A DNA stretch of 64,000 nucleotides from Candidatus Doudnabacteria bacterium (GTDB taxonomy: Bacteria > Patescibacteriota > Doudnabacteria > UBA920 > VMFF01), in the NCBI GenBank assembly GCA_963840645.1, contig CAWIZL010000004.1, positions 267,470 to 331,469 of the forward strand, read 5' to 3'. The position numbers and the translations under genes were made by a program. The notes beneath the pieces are model-generated. The model saw only the letters and a program-made list of their open reading frames with translations, was not told the origin of the DNA and did no database searches. Positions 47,341 through 62,461 of this stretch are shown piece after piece (the first letter of the stretch is position 1; every line of letters begins with the position of its first letter).

Positions 47341-48172
47341 TGTGCCCTTCGCTTAACAATGAACCTGCTGCTCGGCTTCTTCTTGTCGCGGGTTCTCACG
47401 CCCATTGCGTGCTTGCCCCACGGCGTCTTCGGGTACTTCATGCCGATTGGGTTGTGGCCTTCACCTCCACCGTGAGGGTGGTCAACTGGGTTCATGGCTT
47501 TACCGCGAACAGTTGGTCGCCAGCCCATGAGGCGCTTGCGGCCAGCTTTGCCGATGCGGACATTTTCCCAGTCAATGTTTGAGACCTGGCCAACAGTGGC
47601 CATGCACAGCTCAGAAACTTTGCGGATTTCGCCGCTCGGGAGCTTGAGGAGTGCCCAGCCTGCATCAATTGCCTGCAGCGTTGCTGCACTGCCTGCGCTG
47701 CGAGCCATTGCACCTTTGCGGTTTGGCTCAATTTCAATGTCGTGCACGAGGCTGCCAGCTGGAATGTTCTTGAGCATCATCCTGTTGCCAGGGGTTGGGT
47801 CTGCCTTTGCTGATGCAATCACGCTGTCGCCAACCTTTGTGCCGTGCGGTGCAATGATGAAGCGCTTCTCGCCGTCCTTGTAGCTGACGAGCGACAGGAA
47901 CGATGAGCGACCTGGTGCGTACTCAACGGTGAGCACTTTTCCCGGAATGTCCATTTTATCTGAGCGAGAGTAGTCGACAATACGGCTGACCTTGCGGGAA
48001 CCGCCGCCGCGGTGGCGAACGGTGATCTTGCCGCTGAAGTTTCTGCCACCAGACTTTGCCTTAGAGCGCAGAGCGACTTTGGCGTCTTGTGCCTCTTGTC
48101 CAAAATAGAGTAGTCTGTGACTGACTGGATTCGCCTGCCTGCGCTAGTTGGTTTGTAAATCTTTACTGCCAT
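47337..48172 (-). CDS. rplB: 50S ribosomal protein L2 (frame interrupted at least twice)
   Basis: MAVKIYKPTSAGRR starts at ATG 48172. ORF 47337..47954 carries MDIPGKVLTVEYAPGRSS...HPHGGGEG. The middle segment (GGRNFSGKITVRHRGGG) is in a third frame. Confidence 0.9.
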
Positions 48173-48176
48173 ATAT

Positions 48177-48509
48177 TTAAATTGTTGCGTCGCTAATGGT
48201 CTCGCCATCCTTGAGCGTCACGATTGCCTTTTTCCACGGCGAAGTTGTGCCGCGCGTCTTGCCGAACGTGCGGGACTTGCCCTCAACGTTCAATGTATTC
48301 ACAGCGGTAACGTGCACATCGTACACGGCTTCAATTGCCCTGCGCACAGACAGCTTGTTTGCCTTTGCGTGCACCTTGAAAACAAACTTGCCACCTGGTG
48401 CCATTGTGTAGCTCTTCTCTGAGACAATTGGCTTCACGAGAATGCGGTACGCATCCCCAGTGTCAAGCTTTGCCTCTCTCTTTACATTTTCTTTCTTATC
48501 GTCTGCCAT
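48177..48509 (-). CDS. rplW: 50S ribosomal protein L23
   Basis: Intact 110-aa ORF with ILVKPIVSEKS. Confidence 0.9.
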   Translation of the reverse strand: MADDKKENVKREAKLDTGDAYRILVKPIVSEKSYTMAPGGKFVFKVHAKANKLSVRRAIEAVYDVHVTAVNTLNVEGKSRTFGKTRGTTSPWKKAIVTLKDGETISDATI

Positions 48510-48513
48510 AAAA

Positions 48514-49154
48514 TTACTTTAGGTACGTTTTCTCAATGACCGCGAGGCTTGCCTCGGGCACGAGCACTGCATCGTGCTTCAGCAGGTCAACGAGGTTCAG
48601 GCTGTTTGCGCTAATGACTTTGACGTTCTTCAAATTTGCAGATGAGCGCGCAATGCTTGTGTCAACCTTTGGCAGCACGAACAAAAACTTGCGCGCCTTT
48701 GTGGCAACTTTGCCGTTGATGCCTTTGAGCATTGCGACCATGTCCTTTGTCTTTGCTGCTGGCATTGCGATTTCGGAAAATACAATGAAGTTTGATGAAG
48801 ACGCCTTGTCGCTGAGTACCATGTAGAGTGCTTTGCGCCACTGCTTCTTGTTCATCTTGAGAGACCAGTTGCGGTCATTGGTTAGGCCAGGGCAACGCCA
48901 CCGTGACGCCAGATTGGTCCGCGGGTTGAACCTGCGCGGGCGCGACCAGTTCCCTTTTGCTTCCACGGCTTAATGCCGCCACCGCTCACATTGCCGCGGG
49001 TCTTCGTGTTTGAAATTGTTTCGCGGGCGTTTGCGAGCTGCACGCGCACTGCCTGCTGGATGAGCTCAACCTCAGACTTCACCTCAAAGATAGCAGGATT
49101 GAGATCCGCCTCACCAGTGGTTTCTAGTTTCGAGTTGTAGATAGGAGTCTTCAT
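48514..49154 (-). CDS. rplD: 50S ribosomal protein L4 (frame interrupted once)
   Basis: ORF 48882..49154 ([16 protein letters not shown]) and ORF 48514..48966 are colinear. The break is near 48930. Confidence 0.9.
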
Positions 49155-49180
49155 GGTAGTTAACGGCTATTAACTATTAC

Positions 49181-49843
49181 CTATTTCTTCTTGTCTTTCT
49201 TCACAGCTTGCACTGGCTCGAGGTCTTTGATCTTGCCAGTTGAAACAACCTGGACAACACCGTTGCGGTGGCCAGGTACTGCGCCGCTGACTGCGATGAG
49301 CTTGCGCTCAAGGTCAATGTCAACGATCTGGAGATTTTTTACGGTGACGTTCACGCCGCCCATGCGGCCTGCCATGCGAAGACCTTTGCGAACGTGCTGT
49401 GGGTAGCGCTGCCCAATGGAACCTACTGCGCGAGGCTTGTCGTGGCCGTGGGATGCAGGCATACCTTTGAAGCCGTGTCGCTTCATTGCACCTGCAAAGC
49501 CACGACCCTTCATGACGCCGCTCACGTCTACGATTTCGCCAACCTGGAAGTTTGAAATATCAATTTGGCTGCCAACCTCAATGCCTGCCATGTCTTCACC
49601 TTCTGCGCGGAACTCTCTGATAACGGCAAAGGCCTGACCCTTTGTGTGGCCAGACACTGATTTGCTGATGTTCTTCTTCTTGCCAAAGCCAACCTGGACC
49701 GCTGCGTACTTGTCTTTGCCTGTGGTGGTCTTAACCTGCGTAACTGTGACAGGGCCTGCTTCGAGCACGGTAACAGGCACCACCGTGCCTGAAGGCAGGA
49801 AGTGCGATGTCATGTTCAGCTTTTTAGCGAGGGTAAACTTCAT
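49181..49843 (-). CDS. rplC: 50S ribosomal protein L3
   Basis: MKFTLAKKLNMTSHF...GKGFAGAMKRHGF. ATG at 49843 is chosen within ORF 49181..49891. Confidence 0.92.
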   Translation of the reverse strand: MKFTLAKKLNMTSHFLPSGTVVPVTVLEAGPVTVTQVKTTTGKDKYAAVQVGFGKKKNISKSVSGHTKGQAFAVIREFRAEGEDMAGIEVGSQIDISNFQVGEIVDVSGVMKGRGFAGAMKRHGFKGMPASHGHDKPRAVGSIGQRYPQHVRKGLRMAGRMGGVNVTVKNLQIVDIDLERKLIAVSGAVPGHRNGVVQVVSTGKIKDLEPVQAVKKDKKK

Positions 49844-49858
49844 AGTGTGTTTGATTCT

Positions 49859-49978
49859 TGGATTCGCAGGCTTGAGGCAAGTTCGAGGCAAAGTGTGAGG
49901 ATTTCTCGAGGCGTAGTCTACTACGGTGAGAGAAATCCGAACACTTTAACAAAGAAATTGACCAAGCCTGCGAATCCA
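49859..49978 (-). promoter_or_regulatory. 120-nt rod-like nested hairpin just upstream of rplC
   Basis: Four nested stems. Outer 16 bp: 49859-49874 tggattcgcaggcttg pairs with 49963-49978 caagcctgcgaatcca. Then aaagtgt/acacttt, then ggatttctc/gagaaatcc, then cgtag/ctacg. Confidence 0.55.
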
Positions 49979-49980
49979 AC

Positions 49981-50033
49981 CCAAATAAAAAACCGAGACG
50001 ATCCGCTTGCTTGCACAAATAAACCGTCTCGGT
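49981..50033 (-). terminator. Terminator-like hairpin plus U-run inside the rpsJ-rplC spacer (possible attenuator)
   Basis: 9-bp GC-rich stem: 49992-50000 accgagacg pairs with 50025-50033 cgtctcggt. On the minus strand it is followed by ttttttattt. Confidence 0.5.
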
Positions 50034-50196
50034 TCTTCAGTAAGCTGTATTGGATTCTGCTGAGCCAGCTAATTAAGCTGGAAATTGAATTTTTAACCTG
50101 CGTGCGGCTTGGTTTGGGTTCAGAGGTTGTCGCCCATTCTGCGAAGTTCTCTGTTTCCTTGCCTTGCCTACTAAATACTTACACTGACTACTTTCC

Positions 50197-50517
50197 CTAG
50201 TTCATCTTGATCTCCACGTCCACACCAGCTGGGAGATTGAGGTTCGTGAGAGAATCAATCGTTTTTGGAGTTGGATCGCTGATGTCAATGAGGCGCTTGT
50301 GCACCCGCATCTCAAACTGCTCTCGGCTGTCTTTGTGCACGAACGTTGAGCGAAGCACTGTGTACTTCGTCTTCTCCGTTGGCAGAGGGATTGGACCTGT
50401 GATCTGCGCGCCACTGCGCTTAGCTGTATCGACAATCTGCTTTGCAGACTGGTCAATGAGCTTGTGGTCGTACGCTTTGATCTTTATTCTGATTCTAGAC
50501 TTTGCCGCCTGGTCCAT
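50197..50517 (-). CDS. rpsJ: 30S ribosomal protein S10
   Basis: Intact 106-aa ORF with [17 protein letters not shown]. Confidence 0.93.
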
Positions 50518-50542
50518 TGTAATTATTAAGGAATTCTTGGTT

Positions 50543-50571
50543 ATTTTATACTAGTCTCACGGTTTTGTCAA
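50543..50571 (-). promoter_or_regulatory. Sigma70-type promoter of the S10 operon
   Basis: Minus strand: TTGACA (50571-50566), 17-nt spacer, TAAAAT (50548-50543). The 8-bp inverted repeat tctcacgg/ccgtgaga brackets the -35. Confidence 0.55.
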
Positions 50572-50612
50572 AGAGCTAGAAACGTCCGTGAGAACCCCTC
50601 AGACAAACCCGC

Positions 50613-50644
50613 GAGGCTCAATTCCAATTAAGGAATTGAGCCTC
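50613..50644 (-). terminator. 13-bp hairpin directly after tuf (terminator or stabiliser; weak U-tract)
   Basis: 50613-50625 gaggctcaattcc pairs with 50632-50644 ggaattgagcctc. It lies 10 nt below the tuf stop (50655). Confidence 0.45.
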
Positions 50645-50654
50645 TTCGGGCGAT

Positions 50655-51846
50655 CTACTTTATGATGGAAACCACGACACCAGCGCCTACAGTGTGGCCT
50701 CCTTCGCGGATGGCGAAGCGCTGCTTTTCTTCAAGGGCGACTGGAGTTAATGAGCTTCACGGTGAACTTCACTGTGTCGCCTGGCATAACCATTTCCTGG
50801 CCTTCTGGCAAGGGTAACTTCGCCGGTCACATCTGTTGTGCGGATGTAGAACTGTGGCTTGTAGCCTTTGAAGAACGGAGTGTGGCGACCACCTTCTTCT
50901 TTCGTCAAGATGTAAACTTCGCCTTCGAACTCGGTGTGAGGCGTAACGCTGCCTGGCTTAGCCAAGACCTGTCCGCGCTCTACGTCGTCTTTCTTTGTAC
51001 CGCGGAGCAAGATACCTGCGTTGTCGCCAGCCATACCTTCATCGAGCTGCTTGTTGAACATTTCAATACCAGTGATGACAGTCTTTGCTGTTGGGCTGGA
51101 TACCGACGATTTCGATTTCTTCGTTGATCTTAACGATGCCGCGCTCAATACGGCCTGTAACCACAGTGCCACGGCCTTCAATAGAGAAGATGTCTTCAAT
51201 TGGCATGAGGAACGGCTTGTCTGTGTCGCGAACTGGGTCTGGGATGAACGTGTCGAGTGCATCCATGAGCTTCATGATTGAAGGTTCGCCAATCTCTGAC
51301 TGGTCGCCTTCAAGAGCTTTAAGAGCTGAACCGCGGATAATTGGGTGTTGTTGCCCTGGGAAGTCGTACTTTGTGAGAAGGTCGCGAATTTCTTCTTCAA
51401 CGAGGTCGAGAAGTTCTTTGTCGTCAACCATGTCAAACTTGTTCATGAAAACGACAATGTAAGGTACGCCCACCTGCTTAGCAAGCAAGAATGTGCTCAC
51501 GGGTCTGAGGCATTGCGCCGTCAGTTGCGGAAACAACCAAGATAGCGCCGTCCATTTGGGCGGCACCTGTGATCATGTTCTTGATGTAGTCAGCGTGGCC
51601 TGGGCAGTCTACGTGTGCGTAGTGGCGCTTTTCTGTTTCGTATTCTGCGTGAGACGTGTTGATGGTAATACCGCGAGCTTTTTCTTCTGGAGCATTGTCG
51701 ATGGAATCGTACGCACGAGCCTTTGCAAAGCCCTTCTTTGCCAAAACTGTGGTGATTGCAGCTGTGAGCGTTGTCTTGCCGTGGTCAACGTGGCCAATGG
51801 TACCAACGTTCACGTGGACTTTGCTTCGTTCAAACTTATCTGCCAT
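50655..51846 (-). CDS. tuf: Elongation factor Tu (frame interrupted at least 3 times)
   Basis: The gene is in four colinear pieces. [26 protein letters not shown] starts at ATG 51846. It continues through ORFs 51478..51879, 51063..51566 and 50747..51262. The tail is [30 protein letters not shown] with stop at 50655. Confidence 0.92.
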
Positions 51847-52047
51847 GTCCTTATCCTTATGTAGCCCGAGCACGTGCACCGCGAGGGTGTCAACTCTTTT
51901 TTCCTATTCCTAGGATCCAGGGCAAAGTTAATTGTTTGTTAAATTCTTATGTCTTTCGGGCTAACTTTTCTTGGAAATGGCCTCGCACAACGCGCGCTGC
52001 GGGATCATTCACAAAAAAAGCTTCTCGAAAGCTTTGACGCTATTGGG

Positions 52048-52077
52048 AGTTTAACAGAGATTGTGCAAACCTGTCAA
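52048..52077 (-). promoter_or_regulatory. Candidate promoter upstream of tuf
   Basis: Minus strand: TTGACA (52077-52072), 18-nt spacer, TAAACT (52053-52048). A weak A/T hairpin plus T-run lies at 52013-52035. Confidence 0.35.
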
Positions 52078-52085
52078 ATGTCGCG

Positions 52086-52253
52086 CTACTGGGGATCGGT
52101 TTCCTTGAGGTCTGTAGTGTGCTCTTTGAAATCTTCCTGTATTTTGACTAGCTCTGGATCAACCACTTCAGTGTTATCTGGCAAAATCTCTACTTGATCC
52201 TTCGTGACAGGGTTTTCTGAACGGTTTTCTATATTTTTTGAAATATTTTCCAT
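52086..52253 (-). CDS. Small acidic hypothetical protein (55 aa), possibly translated from a leaderless mRNA
   Basis: MENISKNIENRSENPVTKDQVEILPDNTEVVDPELVKIQEDFKEHTTDLKETDPQ. An extended -10 TGGTATAAT (52268-52260) ends 6 nt before the ATG. Confidence 0.35.
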   Translation of the reverse strand: MENISKNIENRSENPVTKDQVEILPDNTEVVDPELVKIQEDFKEHTTDLKETDPQ

Positions 52254-52270
52254 GTCTCTATTATACCACC

Positions 52271-52312
52271 AAAAATACAAAAGAGACGAAGTCGTGGTAC
52301 GACGTTCGTCTC
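52271..52312 (-). terminator. Strong rho-independent terminator ending the 55405-52349 operon
   Basis: Nested 13-bp stem from 52283 to 52312: gagacgaa-gtcgt, loop ggt, acgac-g-ttcgtctc. On the minus strand it is followed by ttttgtattttt. Confidence 0.7.
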
Positions 52313-52348
52313 TCAGGTGTTTGGAGCCTGGCTTGGTAGCCGGCTCCG

Positions 52349-52948
52349 CTAGAAATGTTCCTCCATTTTAGCGTTGAGGCGCGTGGTGAGAAATTCCTTC
52401 CACACGCGCGTGGTGGCAATCATCATCTTCATTTTCTCTGCCCGGTTGGGCAGGTACCAATCAATGATGACGCCATCAAGTTTCGGTACGTTTGGAACGG
52501 CGTCTTCCATGTTCATGAAGATTCCGTTCCACTTGTCTCTCGCAACGTCAGCTGGCTTGCCGTCCTCCCACTTGAAGAGGTCGGAAAATTCCAGCCCGTC
52601 GCTGAATACCAGCACGTGGTCGCCGGCAACCAGGTGGTCTTCGTGGATCGTATTGAGGATCCCGAACACCAGTTCGCTGCGCTTCTCGTTGTGGAGGGTT
52701 TTAATTACCTCCTCACGGGTTTCTTCGATGTCTGACTGCCCATCACCTTTCGGTGCGTGGGCAGCGATGTCTACTTTCCTAATGAGGTTGTAGGCCCCAC
52801 TTGCGCCGAGACGGTGGAACAGGATTTGCACCCTGTAGCCTCGGTTTGTCGATTGCGATACCATGTCCGAATTGAGTCGAAGCTCCAGCTGCTCGGTGAG
52901 GAGTTTTGGATCCCCAGAACTGCTGTCAACGAACACGTCATACTTCAC
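52349..52948 (-). CDS. Hypothetical protein with alternating beta/alpha, vWA-like pattern
   Basis: Intact 199-aa ORF. The GTG start overlaps the upstream stop (GTGA). YDVFVDSSSG, VQILFHR, HVLVFSDGLE and VIIDWYL resemble vWA strands with a degenerate MIDAS motif. The assignment is tentative. Confidence 0.5.
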   Translation of the reverse strand: MKYDVFVDSSSGDPKLLTEQLELRLNSDMVSQSTNRGYRVQILFHRLGASGAYNLIRKVDIAAHAPKGDGQSDIEETREEVIKTLHNEKRSELVFGILNTIHEDHLVAGDHVLVFSDGLEFSDLFKWEDGKPADVARDKWNGIFMNMEDAVPNVPKLDGVIIDWYLPNRAEKMKMMIATTRVWKEFLTTRLNAKMEEHF

Positions 52949-53584
52949 TGGCGGGGCAACTCAATCGCGTTGAGTTCAGCCACTCGCCGCTCTACAGCGG
53001 CTCGCGCCTTGAGTAGCAGAGGTATCCGTGATGTTGGGTTTGCGTCATGCCACTGGCGGGATCAGTTCTTCGGTGGTTGGCGTTTCTTTTCCATCGATGT
53101 TTTTGATCACAACCAGGTTCAAGCCCTTGCCCTGCTTTATCCCTTTCTCACGGATGTCCGTGAGCCACTCTGGAGTGACAGCCCGTTCAGGGAAATCGCG
53201 ACGAACGGTGATGCTCTCCCAGCTCGGGACAAACGTGCTGACAGGTCGCACCGCCACAAAATAGTAGGCAGCGAAAGCGACCAGCAACCCGAACACGATA
53301 CCTGTGGCAATCCAGCTTACCGGAACGTGATCGCCATCGGATTTCTGATCGGCGTATACGTCGCTTGCTACGGATACGTGAAGCTCCGTATGCCTCACCG
53401 GAGTAGGGGTTTGCACTGGATCTGGAGAAGGTTGTGCTGCGGGAAGTACTTGTGGCACCTCCCGCAGAAACGGTTTTTGGTTTGGACTCACTGGAGGTGG
53501 TGCAGTCCGCTTTTCTATCGTTCTACCGCCGCCGAGTCTTCTCGGCGACGGCTGCTTTACACCCGACAATGGGTACATATCCAC
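52945..53584 (-). CDS. Hypothetical proline-rich single-pass membrane protein (frame interrupted once)
   Basis: ORF 53045..53584 has a P-rich N-terminus and a TM helix (WIATGIVFGLLVAFAAYYFVAV). A frame change near 53050 adds the tail ...IPLLLKARAAVERRVAELNAIELPRQ, ending at 52945. Confidence 0.5.
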
Positions 53585-53587
53585 TCC

Positions 53588-55405
53588 TTATGTTTTGTGT
53601 GCTGCTATACCTTTTTCCAGATCCGGCAGCCTTTGCTCATCTGCCGTCGGCGTTTGACCCTCAATCTGAAACTTCTTCTGCCTGCGCAGCTCAGCGGCGG
53701 CGCTCCTCTGCGCTTCCTCTGACGAACGTTGTTGAACAGCGCGGTCGAATTCGGCTTGCGCATTACGCCTCGCGGTGATCTTGCCCTTCTCGTCGTCGGT
53801 AAATTGAACGATGAGGGGTTCGATCTTGGTCAAAACATCGAGGGCGGGCAGTCTTGGATCAAATGCTGCTATTAAGGCTTCCAAGTCCGGATCCGCCAGA
53901 GCCAACGGTGCCGCGTCCTTCGCAGACTTTGCGATGCGGGCACTGGGGCCACTCTGGAGGTACCTGTCACGGTCGAGCTTGCCTTCCAGCAAGCGCATCA
54001 TCGAATCAATCAGGTCCCCAACTCCCGGCAGGTAAACTTCGCCGTGCACCCTTCGGTACCCAGCGAGTAATTCTGCGCGGTAGGTTCTCTGTTCTTTAAT
54101 GGCGGCGAGGAGCTCCTGCAGCGGAACTTCTGCACTCTGCACGTCTGCCTTGTAAGCAACGTTTGCAACTTCAATTGGGTCTGGCGCCGGCTTTGCGGCT
54201 TCTTTGAGGTCAGCTTGGTAGGCGGCCATATCGGCTTCGTACTTTGCATTCGCCTGCGCGAGGCGCTCTGAATTGCGCGCGGCACGGAGGGCGAGTTCGT
54301 TCTTGGCCAAATCTTGTGTCGAGCGCACCTTGTCAGTCAGTTTTTGCTCCTGCTCAACAAAGTACTTCGGCAGAGGCGTCGTGACGAGCATCTCGATGAA
54401 GATGCTCACGAGGAAGCAAACTGGAACCATCCAGGTTCCCAGGCTCGTACCTGCCAGAGTAGAATCACTGGCAATTTGGCTGAGCCGGTACCAAACGAAC
54501 GCTACAGTGGCAATGAAGAGGACGCTCATTGCGCCGATCCCCACGACCCACTTCGCGCTATCCGGTGCCTGTGGCTTGCCGTACCTGTTCTTCACCGTAG
54601 AATCAAGCTTTGCGAATACCGCGAGAGCTCTTTGTACGTGAGGAGGTGGTGGCACTGCTCCACTCCGAAGAGTATGAGCAAGTTGCTGAGGACTGCGATG
54701 ACGAAGATCACTGCGAACGTTGCCACTGGCCCCATGACAGTTCTGGTGACCTCAATGTTCAGAGATCCCTCGACCAAGGCCATGATGACCGACGATGCGA
54801 TGGTCACAATGAATGCAAGCTTTGCAGCTGGCATCATGACGCTGAGGAGACTTCGCTTCGGATCGCCAACCGCAGAAACACGGTTCGTCGTCAGATCGAC
54901 TGTGTACTGCTCCCACTCCTTCTCCGCCGGTGAAGAGCCGTCCTGTTCAAGGACAACCTCTCCCCTGACCGGTTCAGGAATTTGGACCGCCTGCTGAACG
55001 GGAGGTTCTATCTCCCCTTCAGCAATTTGGACCCCGCTCGCGGGTGACGTGCTCGATGACGTCAATGAATCGCCCGCGCGCCTCAGCTTCTTCTGCCTGG
55101 CGCTTTGCGGCCAGCTCTACCTTGAGAATCGGCCACCTGCTCAGAGTATCTCTCAGCCATGCGCCGTTCTCCTGAATGTGCGGGGCGACCGCGGTGTTCT
55201 CGAATTCTTTCCAGCCGTCCGCAGCGTCTAAAGCAACGCTCTCGCACAGCTCGTAAAAGTTATCGTGGTTAGTGTCAAAGGCAGCCGCGGTGCGCGACAG
55301 CCTCTTCGTGGCAATGTTATCCAGGTGGATGAGCATGCTACTGGTGTCATACATCTCGTTGCTGTTTGCCGCCAACTCTTCGGCGTTTTTGTTTTCGCTT
55401 TGCAT
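53588..55405 (-). CDS. Hypothetical membrane protein of about 600 aa, with about 5 TM helices and a long coiled-coil C-terminal half (frame interrupted twice; may be up to 3 ORFs)
   Basis: ORFs 55019..55405, 54592..55065 and 53588..54655 are colinear. The junction at C-run 55032-55035 restores ...HVTRER/VQIAEGEIEPP. The second junction is near 54640. AGGGAGG lies before the ATG at 55405. Confidence 0.5.
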
Positions 55406-55547
55406 ACTAATACTTAACCTCCCTATATTCTAAAGTTGAACTTCTGCTACAGGTGCCAAGCAAAGGATAAGTAAGATTGCACTCAACCTATGCACGGCAC
55501 CTGGCCGCAGAAATCAACCTGTATTCGGTTGTAAAAGTACTGGTCGC

Positions 55548-55638: not shown

Positions 55639-55667
55639 TTGACATATAGTTAAAATACTGGTATAAT
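55639..55667 (+). promoter_or_regulatory. Perfect-consensus sigma70 promoter for the plus-strand island genes
   Basis: TTGACA (55639-55644), 17-nt spacer, TATAAT (55662-55667). The leader is about 140 nt and ends in AAGGAGG, 8 nt before the ATG at 55815. Confidence 0.7.
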
Positions 55668-55814
55668 AGTATCAAATAAAATAATTTACGGCTTCACGCA
55701 AGCTTACTCTTCACTAGCAAGAAAAGCTTACACGAGGCTATAAACCCAGAAACTCCCAGTGTTTGCCTCAAAACACTGGAACGCACCAAAAACCCACAAG
55801 GAGGGTTTGAGACG

Positions 55815-56729
55815 ATGTTTACAAAGAAATGCTTCACCGTGCGCATCGCTGTATTGTTGCTGATGGTATTCGGGTTCAATACCCTTGCCGCAGCAGCTGA
55901 ACAAATCCAAGCCAAAAAGCTTGGCCCAATTGCCAGCCTCGAAAAAGCCGGCAAATCAATGTACTTTCTGACCTCGCTGCTCGACGAGAAAGGCAACAAG
56001 CTTGATCCAGCAGACAACGGCAAGTGGCCTGATGGAAGCTTCACCCTTCCCGACGACGCGGTCGAAGACAAAGAAGGCACGTTCGCCTTCCTGGCTGCCA
56101 TCAATGACAGCCCGACCAAAGCAAAGGGCAAGAAAGCTCAAGGCTTCCACAAAGGCACGCCTCTTGGATGTCCTCCTCCTACTGAGAAGGTCATCGAAAA
56201 AGCAATCACGAAAGAGCACGATCTCTTCGAGCTCACGGTGACCAAGACCATCAAGGTAGGAGAAGTTGCAACGTTTGAGAAGTTCTCAGACGGCAGCGCT
56301 TTCTACACAGTGGAGGTGGATCAGACCACCAAAGGGGTAACAGAATTCAACCAGAGCGATAACACCTTTACGCTCACCGGCAAAAAGGTTGGTAGAAACA
56401 TCATCACGGTGTGGGTCGCGACGGACAAAAAGATCCGCGAGTTGATCAACGTTGACGTTGTGGCAGCAGCACCCGCTGCTGGCACAGGCTCTGGAACTTC
56501 AGCCATAACAATTGCAACCTGGACAGTTGGTGGTGTGATTGTCCTCCTCATGTTGCTGGTGTTGCTGGTAATTTTTCTGGTGAGCAAGGCGAAGCCGAGG
56601 CACACTCTTGGTCTCTTTTTCAGAACAGACTACCCGGACGAACCAGTTTCTACAGAGAGCACTCAGCACGTGGCGCCTACACAGGCACCGCCCGCTCGAG
56701 ATGACGACGACCGCTACGAGCGAGTGTAG
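55815..56729 (+). CDS. Hypothetical type I membrane protein (signal peptide, Ig-like ectodomain, C-terminal TM anchor)
   Basis: Intact 304-aa ORF with signal peptide ...FNTLAAAAEQ, a beta-rich segment TVTKTIKVGEVATF...FTLTGKKVGRNIITVWV, and a TM helix WTVGGVIVLLMLLVLLVIFLV. A strong SD precedes it. Confidence 0.65.
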   Translation: MFTKKCFTVRIAVLLLMVFGFNTLAAAAEQIQAKKLGPIASLEKAGKSMYFLTSLLDEKGNKLDPADNGKWPDGSFTLPDDAVEDKEGTFAFLAAINDSPTKAKGKKAQGFHKGTPLGCPPPTEKVIEKAITKEHDLFELTVTKTIKVGEVATFEKFSDGSAFYTVEVDQTTKGVTEFNQSDNTFTLTGKKVGRNIITVWVATDKKIRELINVDVVAAAPAAGTGSGTSAITIATWTVGGVIVLLMLLVLLVIFLVSKAKPRHTLGLFFRTDYPDEPVSTESTQHVAPTQAPPARDDDDRYERV

Positions 56730-56858
56730 CCGTAAAACACATTTGTCATGGGAGAGCCAAGCAACGATAGGCCGGCGAAATACCGCTACTTCCGAAAGGG
56801 AGCATGTAAGTAACCACCATTTGACTTTTGCACTTCATTGAACATCGTACACCGCAAG

Positions 56859-56890
56859 TCTACGTCCAAATCTTGGATGTAGATTTTTTG
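56859..56890 (+). terminator. Rho-independent terminator
   Basis: 10-bp stem: tctacgtcca, loop aatct, tggatgtaga (one G-U pair), followed by TTTTTTG. Confidence 0.7.
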
Positions 56891-56943
56891 CTTTTGAGGC
56901 AAAATACGCTATAATTTTAATATAAATTCTCTACGCCACACTA

Positions 56944-57921
56944 ATGTTCAACAACTGGTTTCGAGATAGAGACAACGGCGAACGTGGCCACCACGACAGT
57001 GAAGTCGAGGTTGATCTTACAGACAGCACTGGACGCACCATTGGCACGCAGATAATGCCACGATCTGAGGCTCTTGAACACGGCTACGACCTCATTGACG
57101 CACCAGAGCGCGAGCGTCTGGCAGATGAAATAACCTTGCAAGCTGGAGAAGTTGCGCAGCACGAGGGCGTTCTCCACCAGGGCTTCAACGTGAACCAGAG
57201 GATGAACATTGCGAACCCTGAAGTGCCGCACTTTTTAACTGAGAGAGCCAATGAATCTAGGTCGTTTGGACAAAAAACAAAAACCTTCATTGTTGGCTTG
57301 GTTGCCGGCACAGATGCAGCTGCTGCAATTACGTACAAAACCGCAGTGGGCGCAGGCGTTCGCAGTGCGATTAAGCACACCCTAAACTTTGCTGCACCTG
57401 GAGCTGGTGCTGCTGTTGGCGCTGTTGTGGGTGGATCGTGGGAGGGTGTAAAAGCTTCGCGCCAAGAGAGCCAGCGTGTTGAGGCTGAGCAGGCTCGTTA
57501 CAGAGAGGCACTGGAGGCGATCACGGGTACAGAAGATCGCATGGAAGAGCTCTTGAAGATGCGCAATGAGAGCGACGTGGAGCACCTATCTCCAGAGCAG
57601 CAGCACGTGCTCGAACAGTACCGCGCGGTTAAAAAAGATAGGAAAAAAATTGGCATCGCAATCCTGAAAGGCGCTGCGATTGGCTGCCTGGGCGGTGCTG
57701 TCGGCGGCGCACTCATTGAGGTGGCAAGCTACGGCTTGCACCACCTAGCTGACCTTGAAAAATTAAAAGCCGCTGGAGACGCCGTGAAGAAAGTTTTCCA
57801 GTACACGGTCAAGCCGGGTGCTCCAAATGTTTTCAGATTTGAAAACAAAGATGTTGTCCAAGACATGAGCAAGAGCACATGGAACACGGTCAAGGAATGG
57901 TACAGAAGCTCACGGAATTGA
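56944..57921 (+). CDS. Hypothetical protein with two glycine-zipper-like hydrophobic segments and a central charged helix
   Basis: Intact 325-aa ORF with GLVAGTDAAAAITYKTAVGAGV/APGAGAAVGAVVGG and GAAIGCLGGAVGGALIEV. TATAAT lies at 56910-56915. It may continue into the next ORF by a frame change. Confidence 0.55.
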   Translation: MFNNWFRDRDNGERGHHDSEVEVDLTDSTGRTIGTQIMPRSEALEHGYDLIDAPERERLADEITLQAGEVAQHEGVLHQGFNVNQRMNIANPEVPHFLTERANESRSFGQKTKTFIVGLVAGTDAAAAITYKTAVGAGVRSAIKHTLNFAAPGAGAAVGAVVGGSWEGVKASRQESQRVEAEQARYREALEAITGTEDRMEELLKMRNESDVEHLSPEQQHVLEQYRAVKKDRKKIGIAILKGAAIGCLGGAVGGALIEVASYGLHHLADLEKLKAAGDAVKKVFQYTVKPGAPNVFRFENKDVVQDMSKSTWNTVKEWYRSSRN

Positions 57922-57979
57922 TAAGCCGAGCAATAAGTTAATCAACGAAGGCGTCAGGAAGCTGGCAGCAATCAACAAC

Positions 57980-60009
57980 GTGGAAATTACTGAAGATCAC
58001 CTCACGCAAGCAGCCCAAGCCGTACACAACCACGTTGCTGACGGCGTTCGTGATACGGCAATGCAGGCAAACTTTCCACTGCACCACCTGGAATCTCTCA
58101 ACGGTTTAATCGAGAGCGCCGGTGGCCAGCCAGAACAGCTGACGCAGATCATAACAGCTCCAGGAGTTGACACGCTCATCCCCCAGCTTGAGTACGTAGA
58201 CGGCGGGACTTCTGATGAGCTTGAAAAAATTGGGGTTCTGGCTTTGCTCGCAGCTGCTGGGGCTGGCGCTGCTGCAGGCACTGCGATGCTGCTGCGGAAA
58301 AAAAGACGCGGTGAAGAAAAAGAATCCGACAACGAAGAAGGTGCGGCGCAAGAACCTGAAGCACGTGCAGCAGAAGAAAAACCAGAGGTGCCCAGACCCA
58401 GAAGCAGATCACAAAGGTGACGAGTTTGCTTGGCACCAAGCCCGAGAAAAAATTAGAGAGAGCTTTGGGAGAATCAGGTCTGGAATACAGGATGCTGAGG
58501 CTGCCCTGTTGGCTGGAGAGATTGAACGCGCGCAAGACTTCTACAGAAACGCAGAAGATACTTTCTATAACATCTCTGTAGAAGATCTACGCGCAGCGCA
58601 AGCCACTGACAGAAAAGATAGCCTGGGCACAGAGCTCCCACGACCTCCAGGGCAAAATCATAAAAGCAAGCCAGGACGCTGAGGCAACCAAGAGAACAGT
58701 CCACACACCAGACGAACCTCCTGCCAAAACCCGAACGGAAATAGAAAATATCGAGAAAGAAAAGCTGGCCGAAAAAGAGAGGCAGTGGCGTTTTGTGCTC
58801 GATGAAACAGAATCAGCCCTTCGCAACAACGAACTAGAGCTGGCTGAGCAGCTGCTCGGACAGGCCAACGATACTGGAATTGATTTTGCGAGAAGGGCGC
58901 GCGCTCTTTCAAACGCGAGCGGCAACAACGAGAGTGGGCAGGCCTACTCAGAGCTTAAACGTAGAGAAAATAAACTGCTAGAGGAACTGTCTGAACGAAT
59001 GAAAGCCGAGGTTAAAATAGAACCAGAGGCTGCGCCAGCTGAACCAAAAGAAGCTCGCCACGTAAAACGTGATTACAGCGAAGCGCAGGTCGAAAGAGCG
59101 GCTGCGATAATCGAAAAAGCCTTCGACTCTGCTGACTCTGAAATTATTTTTCTCGATGAAGACCCTGCGGTTGGGTTGCAAAAAATTCTCTCTGTTTTGG
59201 GTAAGATCGATGAGCTGGCAAACCAACGAGATACGCCTGCGCGCGTGAAAAAAATATACAGCGACGAATGTTATAGTTTGGTCAATAGAATTCACGAAGC
59301 GGGACACGACAATGTAGCTGTGCAGCTCTGGAAAAAGATAGGCCGCGGGGAGCCACTGCCTTTCACAACGGCGGAAGAAGAGACAAACGTAGGCTTGGAT
59401 AACCTAGAGAGACTCAATCACGATATTGAGCAATCTCTCTTGGCGGGAGACACGGCCGGTGCTGCAGAACTACAAGAACAGTTTGCAGCTGAAGTCGCCT
59501 CAATGCCTTTTTCCCTAAACAGGCTAGCAACTAACGAAAAAATCTCAGCACAGGAAAGACTGGATGATATTCAAGCTGCTAACCGCGCGCTGTACGGAGG
59601 AGCTGGTGAGCCTACTTTTGTAGAGCCATCCACAGAGACCAAGCTGACCAAGAAACAGGCTGCCATTTTCGAACGCGCGAAATCCGAAGGCATAAACTTG
59701 TACCCGGAGATGGCGACAAAGTGGAACGAATTTACGCTACCAAGAGAAAGAGGTGGCACGCTGTGGAGCTTAGTTGACAGACAGCTACTCACGCCGAAAG
59801 AAGCTTTAGACATAATTGACGAAATAAAGAGCGTCAAAGAATGGCGCACAAAGAAAGTAAACCTATCTGAACTCACGGATGCTTTCCAGATCCTCTTAAA
59901 AAAGAAGCAGGTCAAGGCTATAAAAAGTGCCGTCGAGGAGATGCGCAGCATGAACGCTGCAATGGATGCGGCGTACAATGAGGCCAAGAAAAAAGGTAAC
60001 AAAAAATAA
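57980..60009 (+). CDS. Hypothetical single-TM, long coiled-coil protein of about 675 aa (frame interrupted twice)
   Basis: ORFs 57980..58420, 58215..58682 and 58795..60009 (the last frame open from about 58630) are colinear, with breaks near 58400 and 58640. One TM helix (GVLALLAAAGAGAAAGTAMLL). The rest is K/E/A-rich helical sequence. Confidence 0.5.
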
Positions 60010-60011
60010 TT

Positions 60012-60329
60012 ATGCAGTCACTCACAGAGCTACAGGAAAAATACACCGCTCAGTTTTTCCAAGATTTCAAGCTACAGAAAAGCAGCGCTGAAACTCAAGA
60101 AAAAATCTTGGCAATGGTTTCGCACCGCCTTTTAGACGTTGCGGTGACAACGTGCATTGCTGCGATGAATGGCGAGCAGCTCGAACGTTTCTCGGCTACG
60201 CTCGCAGACCCAGAAAAAAATCAGGGAAAGATAAGTTCTATTGCCGCAGAGATTCCTGGGCTGCAAGCAGCTATTGAGCAGGCTTACCTACGGGAGTACG
60301 AAGTTTTAAAGGGAAGCTTCGTGCTGTAG
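60012..60329 (+). CDS. Small helical hypothetical protein (105 aa)
   Basis: Intact ORF starting 3 nt after the previous stop: MQSLTELQEKYTAQFFQDFKLQKSS... Confidence 0.55.
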   Translation: MQSLTELQEKYTAQFFQDFKLQKSSAETQEKILAMVSHRLLDVAVTTCIAAMNGEQLERFSATLADPEKNQGKISSIAAEIPGLQAAIEQAYLREYEVLKGSFVL

Positions 60330-60344
60330 AACGAAAGCTCTTTG

Positions 60345-60385
60345 AATAGGCTTTTCGTGTATAAAAGCACGGAACGCCTATTTTT
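60345..60385 (+). terminator. Rho-independent terminator
   Basis: aataggc(ttttcgtg tataaaag cacggaac)gcctatt, followed by TTT-A-TT. Confidence 0.55.
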
Positions 60386-60425: not shown

Positions 60426-60454
60426 TTGACATATTATATATAATATAGTATAAT
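60426..60454 (+). promoter_or_regulatory. Second perfect-consensus sigma70 promoter
   Basis: TTGACA (60426-60431), 17-nt A/T-only spacer, TATAAT (60449-60454). The leader is about 145 nt and ends in GGGAGGAG before the ATG at 60601. Confidence 0.7.
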
Positions 60455-60600
60455 AGGTGTTCACAGGTTGAGAAGGTTTGCCAACATCTAGCAACCCTCC
60501 CCTGCCTGCGAACAACGCTCACGCGTTGAAGTTCGGCTGGCCACCGCAAGGGTGTTTACACCCGAAGGGTGCACATTTAAAAACTCTGGGAGGAGTTGGC

Positions 60601-61386
60601 ATGAATGTTACAAGTGCAATTGAAGGATTGAAAAAGTTTCTTCTCTGGATTTTCCCGTACAAGTGGCTCGAGACCCTCATCGACATAGCGGTTGCAACGT
60701 GGGGTGCCAAAACAATTCTCGAGGGCCAGTCGCGGAAAAACACCTCCCCCACTTTGTGAACTACAACAGTGGTGGAAACTCAAACGCATTCAATGACCTT
60801 CTGCGGGATTTTGAAAAAATGCCAGATGCCGCAGCGAGAGCCGACACCATCAGGACGTGGCTTCTACGGTGGGCGAAAACCGACCACAGGAGGGCGGAAC
60901 ACTTGAAGCTCTCTATAGCAAAAAAAGCCTTAGGAGCGGGTACACTAGACCCAAAATCCTCTGGGTACGGATACGCAATGCAAGACCTGCTCGATCTTGC
61001 CACAGCTGGTCGCTTCGCAGACGAACGCGGCGACGGAGATCGCACACAGAGAGCCGAAGAACTTGGCCTGGTCATGCCGCACTACGGCATGTACTTTGAC
61101 CAAAAAATCCTGGGGTGGGTTAAACGAGAGTTTACCCGCTTCCATGGGCCTAAACGTATGTCGGTTTTATCTGTTACGTGGGACATCGTACTGCTGGCAC
61201 TCCAGGTGCTCTCAGTTGTTGTGTTCCTCGGACTAGCCGCCTTAGTGCTCATGGCACTGTGCGTTGGGTTGCTCGTTCTCAGCCTGGCATACCCCGTAAT
61301 AGGGTTGCTAGTGTTTATTGCCACGGCCGTAGCCGGCTTGGTGGGTCCTCGTACGAACAAAAACAAAAGAGACAGAAGGAGAATAG
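60601..61386 (+). CDS. Hypothetical membrane protein (frame interrupted once; 3' end 61386 or 61502)
   Basis: MNVTSAIEGLKKFLLWIFPYKWLETLIDIAVATWGAKTILEG. A break near 60730 joins it to the ORF 60663..61502 frame. There are 2-3 C-terminal TM helices (VLSVVVFLGLAALVLMALCVGLLVLSLAYPVIGLLVFIATAVAGLVG). Confidence 0.5.
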
Positions 61387-61387
61387 A

Positions 61388-62461
61388 ATGGAAAAGTTCT
61401 TTAAAGGATTGTGGTTCATCGTGCTGGCTATCGCTGCCTACACCTGTTTTCACTTTAGCCGGTGGGAGACGCTTGCCTTCATTGGCGTGCTTGCGGCACT
61501 GACACTGTGGCAAACAAACAAGGGTCTGGCAACGGCCATCTTCGCGTTAGCCGTATACTCTCTCTTGTGGAATTGGAGTTCGTCCCACAATTCGGGAACT
61601 GTCCAGCTCACGCAACGGCTCTTCGGCAACGGCAAAGACCACCTCAAGAATGGCCTTGTCAGGCTCGACCAATCCACCACAGCGGACAGGTGGATTAAGT
61701 ACCAGGTCAAACAGGATACATGGCCCATCAAGTGCTGCCGCAAGAACAACTTTGACCGCAAGACGGGTCAACTGCTCCACACCGATATTGGCACTCAAAC
61801 GCCACTCCCCCTCGAAGCGGGTACGGTAGTGCAAAGTGCCTTCTCTACAGCCGAACAGGAACAAAAAACCTGGGACATGGGAACCTGGTACGAAGGTAGA
61901 AAGTACCTACCAGTAAACATTTTACGAGAGGGCACTCACGGCAAACTCTTTGAGTTCGGTGATACGTCTATGATCTACCTGGTAGACCCAGATGACCTGG
62001 TGGAGGTCGACACCGACAAGGTTAACGGAACCACCGCGGTTTCGGAAAAACCAAAGGTTAGGCCAGCCAATACAAAGAAGGCTGCCACGCCACCACCAGT
62101 TGCCTCCTACGAGAGGAACGGCACCGTGCCAGGTACGTGGCAAGCAGCAGAGGGCGTCATTCGCCCAACCCTGATGGTCACGCTGTCAGGGCAAGACCCA
62201 GCCGAAGTTGCGGTTGGCGTTGTGCACCCAGGCTCTATTGTATGGGTGACCCAGCAACCTGGCGAGACCGAGGATCCAGGCAGCGATGTCCAGGTCACGG
62301 TAGCTGGGAAAAAGGTTGCATTCGATGAGTGCAGCCTCAAAAACTTCTGCAGCTTCAGCGTTCTGGCCAACAACCAGACGCAGGTGCCGCAAAACGTAAC
62401 CATAAACAATATATCGAGGAGGAAACACGTCGTGACCGTTTACGGCCTCGACGCGTTCTAA
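61388..62461 (+). CDS. Hypothetical protein with two N-terminal TM helices and a beta-rich ectodomain
   Basis: ATG at 61388 is preceded by AGGAG. MEKFFKGLWFIVLAIAAYTCF...LAFIGVLAALTLW... 357 aa, in the frame of ORF 61178..62461. Confidence 0.6.
   Translation: MEKFFKGLWFIVLAIAAYTCFHFSRWETLAFIGVLAALTLWQTNKGLATAIFALAVYSLLWNWSSSHNSGTVQLTQRLFGNGKDHLKNGLVRLDQSTTADRWIKYQVKQDTWPIKCCRKNNFDRKTGQLLHTDIGTQTPLPLEAGTVVQSAFSTAEQEQKTWDMGTWYEGRKYLPVNILREGTHGKLFEFGDTSMIYLVDPDDLVEVDTDKVNGTTAVSEKPKVRPANTKKAATPPPVASYERNGTVPGTWQAAEGVIRPTLMVTLSGQDPAEVAVGVVHPGSIVWVTQQPGETEDPGSDVQVTVAGKKVAFDECSLKNFCSFSVLANNQTQVPQNVTINNISRRKHVVTVYGLDAF

Follow-up and report, generated by a model that had tools for sequence, protein, structure and literature searches.

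EzrA of Firmicutes (PF06160), a regulator of FtsZ assembly, has a membrane anchor and, after it, about 500 aa folded as antiparallel helical bundles in the cytoplasm. ZipA and MapZ/LocZ are bitopic FtsZ tethers or positioners, the former running from a TM helix through a basic cluster and a charged/Pro-rich flexible linker to a folded cytoplasmic module, the latter coupling an extracellular domain to a cytoplasmic part and having a link to Ser/Thr phospho-signalling. In this study, we analysed a 64,000-nucleotide stretch of DNA (the window) from an indel-rich assembly of Patescibacteria (CPR), which encodes on its plus strand a large protein with likenesses to all of these. It shares with EzrA the anchor and the helical cytoplasmic region, but EzrA has one N-terminal TM and neither an extracellular domain nor a glycine zipper, the large protein has no Pfam match, and EzrA is absent from the best 50 Foldseek PDB matches of the large protein's cytoplasmic arm. 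The ZipA order of elements and the MapZ/LocZ coupling across the membrane both recur in it, and the phospho-signalling link can be compared with a family member (P0024) that has a cytoplasmic PP2C phosphatase (Stp1 family, E 1.5e-32) fused at its N-terminus; however, sequence and fold similarity to ZipA and MapZ/LocZ is absent, and the large protein would have two TMs around its extracellular domain with cytoplasmic regions on both sides. If the link to division is true, EzrA and the large protein would do a comparable job; the ezrA gene is not known to lie between ftsA and ftsZ. Searches of Pfam, NCBIfam, PHROG, PADLOC and the PDB returned no relatives of the module, and no paper on it was found in the literature. 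The large gene and its small partner make up a hitherto undescribed pair of genes from ultra-small (CPR) bacteria.

The sequence-only reading had listed four ORF blocks, all of which we found in place, and had suggested that two of them, 56944..57921 and 57980..60009, might be one protein of about 1000 aa cut by an indel. Homologues showed this directly. Judged by sequence comparison, 56944..60009 forms a single gene for about 1,020 aa, interrupted by three one-base frame errors, and the proteins of the locus number three rather than four or five. An exhaustive HMMER search identified 22 relatives of 56944..57921, most of 860-1440 aa, and the homologues are single ORFs (E down to 1e-30, or 6e-59 with the repaired core). 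The motif WNTVKEYL..HGI.KPSN.LINEATR...NNVEITGDH is unbroken in relatives but in the window runs partly in frame 1 and partly in frame 2, the split falling at about 57904, which argues for a single gene, and it spans the TGA TAA at 57919 without interruption in alignments A1, A3 and A6. When four homologues were searched against the window by tblastn, the match left frame 1 for frame 2 at 57890-57911 while the query coordinates ran on contiguously, and a single envelope covered the alignment of the repaired core with the relative P0005 (query positions 3-364 of 370, E 6e-59). The frame of 57980 is indeed open back to 57869 with no ATG, GTG or TTG before 57980, and the two breaks previously noticed in 57980..60009 correspond to changes among three frames near 58394 and 58638. 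The existence of homologues excludes chance ORFs, and on that basis both the large gene and the 105-aa gene downstream are taken as real.

The large gene can be read in four plus-strand pieces, and its architecture is read from hydropathy and flanking basic clusters, the AlphaFold models, the clustering of invariant residues and the PP2C fusion in P0024. Piece 1 (56944..57903, frame 1, residues 1-320, from homologue alignments) begins at a start in agreement with the N-termini of homologues (MWNWFRRNK.../MFNNWFRDRD...) and comprises a conserved N-terminal peptide and beta-hairpin, glycine-zipper helices, a charged helix and a TM with GxxxGxxxG, before ending inside the conserved inter-TM domain at ...WNTVKEWY. 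The G/A-rich zippers reported earlier, GAGAAVGAVVGG and GAAIGCLGGAVGGAL, do lie on either side of the charged helix. Piece 2 (57905..58393, frame 2, residues 321-483, from tblastn, hydropathy and the repaired-core alignment) completes the inter-TM domain (...KPSNKLINEGVRKLAAINNVEITEDH...AGG) and continues with the second TM IGVLALLAAAGAGAAAGTAMLL, the basic cluster RKKRR and the start of an acidic/Pro-rich linker, which is probably disordered. The first helices of the cytoplasmic arm make up piece 3 (58395..58637, frame 0, residues 484-564, bounded by frame errors 2 and 3). Piece 4 (58639..60009, frame 1, residues 565-1020, from AlphaFold and a P0005 match) carries helical hairpin or three-helix repeats, a conserved C-terminal domain of ~100 aa, where P0005 residues 771-868 match 59719-59991 (tblastn, E 9e-11), and the basic tail KKKGNKK.

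The N-terminus of the large protein would lie in the cytoplasm, with zipper helices that appear amphipathic, and the two predicted membrane helices would enclose an outward-facing, conserved alpha/beta domain of 100-130 aa. This domain was modelled by AlphaFold with pLDDT 81 and pTM 0.66 and had no fold match in the PDB. The zipper glycines G153, G159, G243, G247 and G251 and the inter-TM W313 are invariant in the family, and K317, N334, D370, G393 and G394 of the inter-TM domain are nearly so. Several homologues have only weakly hydrophobic segments (KD 1.25-1.9, and in P0013 none that reaches 1.2), and the topology of the large protein is therefore a model.

The arm is predicted to be about 530 aa of helical hairpins, its length varying across the family (860-1440 aa in total). 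Its earlier description as a coiled-coil rod, with about 550 aa of charged helical sequence, should be toned down to an arm of interrupted helical repeats in place of one continuous coiled coil, since AlphaFold placed about 20 helices grouped as hairpins or three-helix units with Pro/Gly linkers between them. Of residues 453-1020, a crude heptad score covered 35%, whereas shuffles gave 8 +/- 6.5%. The full-length model had a mean pLDDT of 69, with 84-96 at residues 500-580 and mostly 85-94 at 711-850. The best Foldseek matches of the arm were TPR and designed helical repeats (P58IPK, OGT TPR, LapB, DHR designs), all non-significant at E 2.5e-3 to 0.5 and probability up to 0.98. The arm sequence also shows recurring A..AL..G....A...... 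hairpin motifs, but there is no Pfam TPR match, E exceeds 1e-3 and TM-scores are <=0.3, so that the resemblance is architectural only.

Gene 3 (60012..60329, plus strand) encodes a 105-aa, all-helical cytoplasmic protein whose ATG lies 2 nt past the large-gene stop codon (60007-60009), and the two are likely translationally coupled. Each of the 10 loci read (the window and nine others) has a homologue of 101-105 aa that begins 2-27 nt after the large gene. The proposal that this ORF encodes a partner was borne out by its following the large gene in every one. The homologues of the nine other loci have 25-40% identity to the window protein (alignment A7), with E-values of 1.5e-7 to 1e-19 against the window in tblastn and 1e-14 to 5e-22 for homologues of the gene. 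DUF5663 (PF18908) is similar in size and helical character and weakly matched four of the 10 partners (best 19.7 bits, E 0.0013), but every match was below its 23.7-bit cut-off and the window protein gave none at E <= 1. DUF5663 is itself without known function, and no mention of it was found in the literature.

Gene 1 (55815..56729, plus strand) encodes a 304-aa type I membrane protein, as indicated by its ORF, hydropathy and weak homology, and is preceded by a strong Shine-Dalgarno sequence, AAGGAGGG. The signal peptide, TM and acidic tail previously ascribed to it were all found: the N-terminal segment is hydrophobic and signal-like (KD 1.99, ...LAAAA|EQ), residues about 225-265 form a strong TM towards the C-terminus (KD 3.41), and the cytoplasmic tail closes with an acidic patch that includes DDDD. 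The Ig-like or beta-sandwich character is plausible, and the ectodomain probably comprises a conserved N-terminal ~90 aa and a Big_2-like beta domain. Gene 1 has weak homology to the genes that precede the large gene elsewhere, namely in L088 (33% over 90 aa, E 4e-5), L084 (E 2e-4) and L083 (E 3e-3). The L088 homologue matched Big_2 (PF02368) over profile positions 2-79 of 79, but the match was sub-threshold (E 0.0039, 17.5 vs 22.8 bits) and seen in that homologue only. In the window protein, LTVTKTIKVGEVATF...FTLTGKKVGRNIITVWV reads as the typical Big_2 pattern, and its own weak match was to T2SS-T3SS_pil_N (E 0.088). At other loci a signal-peptide/TM protein is usually upstream of the large gene, Ig-like in some and with a coiled-coil ectodomain in L084 and L086.

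One clade carries the module exactly in the gap that separates ftsA from ftsZ. The order ftsA, module, ftsZ was seen in L085, L087 and L088/L089, the module followed by ftsZ in L083 and L084, and ftsA followed by the module in L082. On account of this position we tentatively favour a reading in which the three-protein locus provides a scaffold or tether, specific to the lineage, for cell division and envelope growth. That it is a trans-membrane scaffold, possibly divisome-linked, is held with low-to-moderate confidence, the function being read purely from synteny. The glycine zippers would oligomerise the large protein in the membrane, the protein would couple its wall-facing domain to a long flexible cytoplasmic platform, the gene 1 ectodomain might work with the wall-facing domain, and the 105-aa partner would load or cap the platform. 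Such a scaffold would be analogous in function to EzrA, ZipA or MapZ without homology, as neither Pfam nor Foldseek revealed fold or sequence similarity to these or to any FtsZ-binding protein. The ftsA-ftsZ flanking is limited to one set of related contigs, with FtsZ 76-87% identical, and could therefore go back to one insertion in an ancestor. In the window, by contrast, the module adjoins tuf, away from ftsA and ftsZ, and in L091 and L092 its surroundings include genes for a VirD4-type coupling protein and an SLT transglycosylase, respectively. These contexts, and the island-like look of the L088 insert, speak against the division link. No terminator was predicted between partner and ftsZ in L084, L085 and L087. 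However, ftsZ has its own promoter-like site in those three loci and in L084 and L087 a separate 12/12 promoter belongs to the module, so that co-transcription is not implied.

An unlikely alternative to this scaffold is a surface or host-interaction apparatus, such as a T4SS/pilus accessory or epibiont attachment complex, in which the outward domain and the Ig-like protein would be extracellular, the arm would organise machinery, and the position beside ftsA and ftsZ would be a historical accident. In its favour, module neighbours are variable membrane or secreted ORFans, with many membrane/surface ORFans around the module in the window, and in L092 the module adjoins a 933-aa SLT-domain (transglycosylase) protein and an upstream protein has three Big-like repeats. 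A VirD4/TraG-type coupling-protein fragment also lies two genes upstream in L091 (TraG-D_C 26.6 bits, T4SS-DNA_transf 23.5 bits, both over cut-offs), but in Patescibacteria homologues of VirD4 are common and for the most part not close to virB4 (PMC12102498), so that this adjacency carries little weight. VirB4, VirB6 and other T4SS genes were not seen in the module-bearing loci or the scanned window ORFs, and housekeeping and division genes flank the module in six contigs.

It is improbable that the large protein instead forms an oligomeric pore through its glycine zippers, or serves in membrane remodelling or stress, with the GxxxGxxxG helices as a functional core for channel formation or membrane insertion and the arm as a regulator. 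The invariant glycines are the family's best-conserved feature, and there were weak matches to the glycine-zipper families Tim17 and DUF1269 (E 0.03-0.13) and to the prion AGAAAAGA segment. These matches are compositional only and far under thresholds, and this reading leaves the conserved inter-TM domain, the 500-900-aa arm and the obligate partner without explanation.

The three frame breaks within 3.1 kb could also be genuine and mark a decaying pseudogene, which we consider highly improbable. Across the conserved genes of 39.8-51.9 kb in the window there are nine frameshifts, about one per 1.3 kb, and for that reason assembly error is the expected cause of the split at 57904. Break density in essential genes is equal or higher (four in the 1.2 kb of tuf, and one each in rplD, rplB, rplV and rplR), and every piece of the large gene retains a long open frame and conserved residues. 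Frame error 1 (57904, approximate) is a single extra base in TAC-A-GAA, the removal of which gives KEWYEAHGIDKPSN with the spacing of the homologues' KEYLKEHGIEKPSN. Frame errors 2 and 3 lie at about 58394 and about 58638 (each uncertain by about +/-15 nt), within GTGCCCAGACCC and CTGGGC/GCTCCC/CCAGGG, respectively, and the AlphaFold helices at 490-582 (pLDDT 84-96) continue through the second junction.

A mobile-element or phage remnant with a tape-measure-like protein carried on an island, as the region had been viewed, is largely refuted and barely credible: the protein is long, mostly helical and rich in Gly/Ala hydrophobic segments, tape-measure proteins turn up among its BFVD matches without reaching significance (E 0.03-1, TM-score about 0.07), duplicated toxin-antitoxin pairs on its flanks give the L088 insert an island-like look, and strong SD sequences precede three genes of the ORFan cluster in the window, in contrast to the housekeeping genes, but Pfam and BFVD lend no support, no module protein has a PHROG match at E < 0.04, PADLOC matches and IMG/VR relatives are absent, no locus has capsid, terminase, tail or integrase genes, and the chromosomal context is stable with housekeeping genes on either side.

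A promoter scan returned 10 sites, against 3.9 +/- 2.5 in shuffles. By consensus match only, a TG-extended TTGACA-17-TATAAT site (12/12, plus strand, 55639..55667) lies upstream of gene 1, and a divergent site (11/12, minus strand, 55576-55548) would serve the minus-strand genes. Gene 1 is followed by a terminator-like hairpin with a 14-bp stem and T-run (56856..56886, plus strand), and a TATAAT -10 box read by eye at about 56911 (plus strand), for which the scan gave no good -35, precedes the large gene. Another terminator-like hairpin (60353..60374, plus strand) follows gene 3, with the next promoter-like site (12/12, 60426-60454) downstream of it. The divergent neighbours at 52349..55405 (minus strand) probably comprise one gene of about 390 aa and another of about 600 aa, with a stop and frameshifts interrupting them. 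Homologues of 391 and 520-553 aa stand in that divergent position beside the large gene in L082, L085 and L086.

Our comparisons with homologous proteins support the reading of 56944..60009 as a single gene of ~1,020 codons. An ORF check placed 56944..57921, 57980..60009 and their neighbors where the sequence-only reading had them, with the 57980..60009 region spread over three reading frames, and its suggestion that the two ORFs encode one protein of ~1000 residues is borne out by the course of a motif across frames. In homologues this motif, S-V-W-N-T-V-K-E-Y-L-K-E-H-G-I-E-K-P-S-N-K-L-I-N-E-A-T-R...N-N-V-E-I-T-G-D-H...A-G-G, is unbroken; in the window its first half (STWNTVKEWY) closes the frame-1 ORF and its second half, EAHGIDKPSNKLINEGVRKLAAINNVEITEDH, is read in frame 2, beginning before the supposed GTG start at 57980 and running through it. 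When four homologues were compared with the window by tblastn, the match changed from frame 1 to 2 within 57890–57911 while the query coordinates ran on without interruption, and deletion of one base at ~57904 (TAC-A-GAA) gave the spacing of the homologues. The repaired core (residues 96–465) matched the homologue P0005 in a single envelope (positions 3–364 of 370, E 6e-59), and with the frame error at ~57904 removed the motif W-x-T-x-K...PSN..[IV]N...N.V.I...D..[ML]..GF.L..F..L..L[IV]..AGG of the domain between the two predicted membrane helices was present in the alignments A1, A3 and A6. In addition, the start at 56944 agrees with the N-termini of the homologues, in which the N-terminal core and a conserved C-terminal domain occupy one ORF, and AlphaFold helices are confident (pLDDT 84–96) across the repaired stretch. 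The second and third breaks (~58394 and ~58638) are placed only to roughly ±15 nt because the linker there is poorly conserved. The gene model of the large gene is now solid.

Neither homopolymers nor translation signals contributed to this conclusion. Short homopolymer runs occur everywhere and the actual break site (TACAGAA) has none, so they do not discriminate an indel. Shine-Dalgarno motifs were dropped as evidence on a start at 57980 because housekeeping genes here do without them: the motif is missing from 17 of the longer ORFs in the window, among them S10, S3, L6, S5, glgA, pepF and htrA, and also from the large gene at 56944. Three genes of the ORFan cluster have strong Shine-Dalgarno motifs, AAGGAGGG, AGGGAGG and GGGAGGAG (55790–55814; 55406–55430, minus strand; 60586–60600), together with near-perfect promoters.

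The frame breaks of the large gene have counterparts in essential genes of the same assembly. Comparison of relatives' proteins with the window revealed four frame changes within 1.2 kb in tuf (50658–51879) and one each in rplD (~48890), rplB (~48075), rplV (~46573), rplR (~41840) and a gene near 39.9 kb (~39929), which amounts to nine breaks per 12.1 kb (39800–51900), or approximately one per 1.3 kb, so about three such errors are expected in the 4.5-kb module. Three breaks might also be carried by a true pseudogene whose frameshifts are real in this genome, but tuf is hit harder than the large gene, and we consider pseudogenization very improbable. The same indel rate implies that many of the "short ORFs" of the window are fragments. 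Three overlapping ORFs in three frames at 60601–62461 on the plus strand (60478/60601..60759, 60663..61502 and 61178..62461) look like a single ~620-aa membrane-protein gene broken by indels; it has GGGAGGAG and a 12/12 sigma-70-like promoter (60426–60454) upstream, and no homologue in the other loci. A 444-aa ORF at 27618–28952 (minus strand) joins an adenylate kinase domain (residues 12–181) to a type I methionine aminopeptidase domain (residues 195–444), either as a real fusion or through a stop codon lost to assembly error. By exact look-up, four of six window ORFs (the 325-, 304- and 404-aa module ORFs and S10) were singleton clusters, all from one contig, and the 105-aa ORF and a 355-aa ORF at 53588..54655 were absent from the protein collection; the 105-aa and 325-aa proteins, looked up in the same way, led to no contig.

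S10 (50197..50517, minus strand) is 84–89% identical to its counterparts in metagenome-assembled genomes that carry the label Patescibacteria, Saccharibacteria or Doudnabacteria, and the ribosomal-protein operon below it has the same gene order as in those genomes. The str operon has been rearranged, since in the window (51880–52350, compared with 4214–8866 of the near relative's contig L001) fusA is missing ahead of tuf and the ORFan cluster abuts tuf, whereas the nearest relatives have the order fusA-tuf-S10 instead. The stretch from the ribosomal operon to adk/map is interrupted by genes for large proteins, probably of the cell surface, in which Laminin_G_3, He_PIG, fn3 and purple-acid-phosphatase-N domains occur (32742–38904, minus strand).

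Relatives of the large protein were recovered solely by an exhaustive HMMER search with 56944..57921. This partial query identified 23 cluster representatives of 1.84 billion at E <= 1e-3, 22 of them other than its own, and ten proteins including the query at E <= 1e-10; phmmer matched the N-terminal core to P0005–P0013 with E-values of 1e-30 to 1e-13. Most relatives are proteins of 860–1440 aa in which the match falls within the first third. Word-index protein searches with the 325-aa ORF, the C-terminal 449 aa and the profile A1 returned the window's own ORFs only, probably because Gly/Ala-rich words swamp the 8000-candidate list. The practical consequence is that long-read CPR assemblies with ~1 indel per kb fragment genes into "ORFans" and thereby hide such a family from gene-by-gene and word-index searches. 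No module protein had a Pfam, PHROG, NCBIfam or PADLOC match above threshold, neither Pfam nor NCBIfam has a model for the large-protein family, and our literature search found no paper on that family, on DUF5663 or on a CPR-specific ftsA-ftsZ insert. Scanning genome contigs with the C-terminal ORF yielded nothing, and a scan with S10 yielded 80 Patescibacteria loci, none of which encodes a module protein; two metagenome-contig scans gave pattern matches of which none was confirmed. The large protein is best regarded as belonging to a family of membrane scaffolds that evolves fast and has not been described before.

AlphaFold2 modeling of the full-length protein from a 17-sequence alignment (mean pLDDT 69, pTM 0.32) gave the following order of domains. 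A conserved N-terminal peptide (residues 20–39) forms a small beta-hairpin followed by helices, and Gly-zipper helices then run into a charged helix (residues 112–193); 56944..57921 does contain two Gly/Ala zipper stretches on either side of a charged helix, as had been noted. The next elements are a helix with GxxxGxxxG (residues 233–263), a compact alpha/beta domain (residues 305–391), a hydrophobic helix of low confidence with RKKRR after it (residues 423–454), a disordered acidic/Pro linker (residues 455–489), and approximately twenty helices arranged as hairpins or three-helix units (residues 490–1017) with linkers at 584–595, 690–708 and 885–901. The N-terminal core contains the zipper motifs PGxGAxxGAxxGG and GAxxGxxGGxxGG; G153, G159, G243, G247 and G251 are invariant in the 17 sequences, and invariant residues are concentrated in the zippers and the inter-TM domain. 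The helical arm is the part with the greatest length variation, and the conserved C-terminal domain of ~100 aa that comes after it (59719–59991) matches P0005 residues 771–868 (E 9e-11) and, more weakly, P0007, P0009 and P0012.

The arm had previously been taken for a coiled-coil rod. A crude heptad score is indeed well above that of shuffled sequences, but it covers only 35% of the arm, linkers interrupt it, and the best Foldseek matches of the full-length model, none of which reached E <= 1e-3 against the PDB, are TPR and designed helical-repeat proteins. We therefore replace that term with "interrupted helical-repeat arm". The inter-TM domain modeled alone reached pLDDT 81 and pTM 0.66, and Foldseek found nothing in the PDB better than E 3.8. 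LysM, considered because of the beta-alpha-alpha-beta order, was rejected on that result and on there being no Pfam or PDB sequence match.

Hydropathy placed membrane helices at residues 235–265 and 425–451 only, and both have basic clusters on the side facing away from the enclosed domain. In one homologue (P0024, L091 2656–5763) the N-terminus is extended by a fused Stp1/IreP-type PP2C Ser/Thr phosphatase (E 1.5e-32), an argument that this end lies in the cytoplasm. We infer a topology in which the N-terminus would be inside, a domain of ~100–130 aa extracellular between the two membrane helices, and the C-terminal arm inside. In design the protein is a variant of the membrane-anchored helical scaffolds of other bacteria and a member of none. 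Its succession of TM helix, basic cluster, flexible linker and folded module is ZipA-like, whereas EzrA differs in having a single N-terminal TM. EzrA (PF06160) was rejected, as it had no Pfam match on window pieces or homologues and was not among the top 50 Foldseek PDB matches, and the spectrin fold was not recovered.

The 105-aa partner gene (60012..60329) begins 2 nt past the TAA at 60007–60009. Contigs were retrieved for nine family members, and in all nine a gene for a protein of 101–105 aa with 25–40% identity to the window's follows the large gene by 2–27 nt. Against DUF5663 (PF18908, gathering cut-off 23.7 bits), the window's protein had no match at E <= 1 and its best homologue scored a sub-threshold 19.7 bits. 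Gene 1 (55815..56729) encodes a protein that begins with a hydrophobic, signal-like stretch; near its C-terminus a very hydrophobic TM helix is followed by KAKPRH, and the tail contains DDDD. A signal-peptide protein with a C-terminal TM also precedes the large gene in five contigs (L083, L084, L086, L088 and L092), and these proteins share with gene 1 a weakly conserved N-terminal ectodomain (E 4e-5 to 3e-3). These proteins also carry either a putative Big_2-like beta domain (window, L083, L088 and L092) or a coiled coil (L084 and L086). The window's protein had no match to Big_2 (PF02368, cut-off 22.8 bits), and the L088 homologue scored 17.5 bits, below the cut-off, with full profile coverage.

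On the minus strand, the five ORFs of 52349–55405 are probably two genes of ~390 and ~600 aa with an in-frame stop and compensating frameshifts. A search for homologous modules next to this operon had been proposed, and in L082, L085 and L086 homologues of 391 and 520–553 aa do adjoin the large gene in divergent orientation, so these genes may be part of an extended module. The divergent proteins matched no family, and neither they nor the 105-aa family had a PDB sequence match.

The association with ftsA and ftsZ stands out most. The module stands between ftsA and ftsZ in L085, L087 and L088/L089, ftsZ follows the partner gene by 76–170 nt in L083 and L084, and ftsA is ahead of the module in L082, whose contig stops right after the partner gene. 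Linkage to ftsA/ftsZ or dcw thus holds in L082–L090 (L086 being too short to tell), and is not found for the two most distant members, L091 and L092, or for the window, which contains no ftsA or ftsZ anywhere in its 64,000 nt. These linked contigs are akin, since their FtsZ proteins are 76–87% identical. In L084, L085 and L087 ftsZ has its own promoter-like site and no terminator was predicted from the partner gene to ftsZ; a consensus promoter of the module's own is present in L084 and L087. Genes downstream of the module are not conserved between loci. The ~10-kb ftsA-ftsZ insert of L088/L089 has on each side a copy of an MNT/HepT (NTP_transf_2/HepT-like) toxin-antitoxin pair (6269–7131 and 16319–16982), a pattern suggestive of island-like insertion or of recombination there. 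Where ftsA and ftsZ are absent, L092 has an SLT-domain protein and the window tuf nearby, and L091 has a VirD4/TraG-type coupling-protein fragment two genes upstream. VirD4 homologues are abundant in Patescibacteria and mostly unlinked to T4SS clusters (PMC12102498).

The ftsA/ftsZ context is suggestive, and we tentatively favor a role in division or envelope growth on synteny and architecture: the position between ftsA and ftsZ, the ZipA-like design and the fusion to a Stp1-family PP2C, a family that regulates division proteins in Firmicutes. The large protein may oligomerize via its glycine zippers and act as a trans-membrane scaffold, linking a wall-facing domain, perhaps with the gene 1 ectodomain, to a cytoplasmic platform that would be long and flexible and bound by the 105-aa protein. 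A possible, if doubtful, elaboration is a Patescibacteria-specific divisome unit with an ancestral site between ftsA and ftsZ, whose zipper oligomer would sense or bind the wall through the new extracellular fold, tether the FtsZ/FtsA ring via the helical-repeat arm and the 105-aa adaptor, and so act in place of FtsZ tethers and regulators such as ZipA, EzrA and MapZ. The predicted extracellular domain and the ectodomains of gene 1 could also belong to a surface or host-interaction apparatus, which we regard as unlikely, with housekeeping and division genes flanking the module in six contigs. The invariant zipper glycines might likewise serve a pore or a stress protein, an improbable reading for a protein with so long a helical arm. 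A phage or mobile remnant is scarcely credible: a tape measure or prophage origin found no PHROG or Pfam TMP match and no tail-gene neighborhood, and a scan of viral contigs found no relative of the module. Anti-phage defense was also rejected, with no PADLOC match except the generic PP2C domain of P0024.

CPR/Patescibacteria are said to lack many canonical divisome parts. The module offers concrete candidates for the little-understood division and envelope building of these ultra-small, genome-reduced bacteria, with a novel, predicted extracellular domain and, in a single lineage, a position that splits the otherwise almost universal ftsA-ftsZ pair. Its conserved pair, and the third gene, have so far been found only in metagenomic contigs like the window's, and the candidates would be testable in the few genetically tractable Saccharibacteria if the family is carried there.

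Several further observations concern division and shape genes near these loci. The window encodes a full-length MreB (5739–6743, minus strand, E 2e-129) and a HIT-family gene (8128–8352, minus strand) ~50 kb from the module; HIT-S21-YqeY-FtsA is the gene order seen in the relatives, where the module comes immediately after FtsA. In L083 and L084, the C-terminal peptide of FtsZ is LDIPAFIRKKMK. A conserved protein of 143–153 aa, which has a TM at its N-terminus and matches no family, is encoded downstream of ftsZ in L083 (7381–7821), L084 (5968–6414), L087 (14673–15134) and L088 (18660–19091), separated from ftsZ by one or two short ORFs in L083 and L084, and its gene is another candidate lineage-specific division gene.
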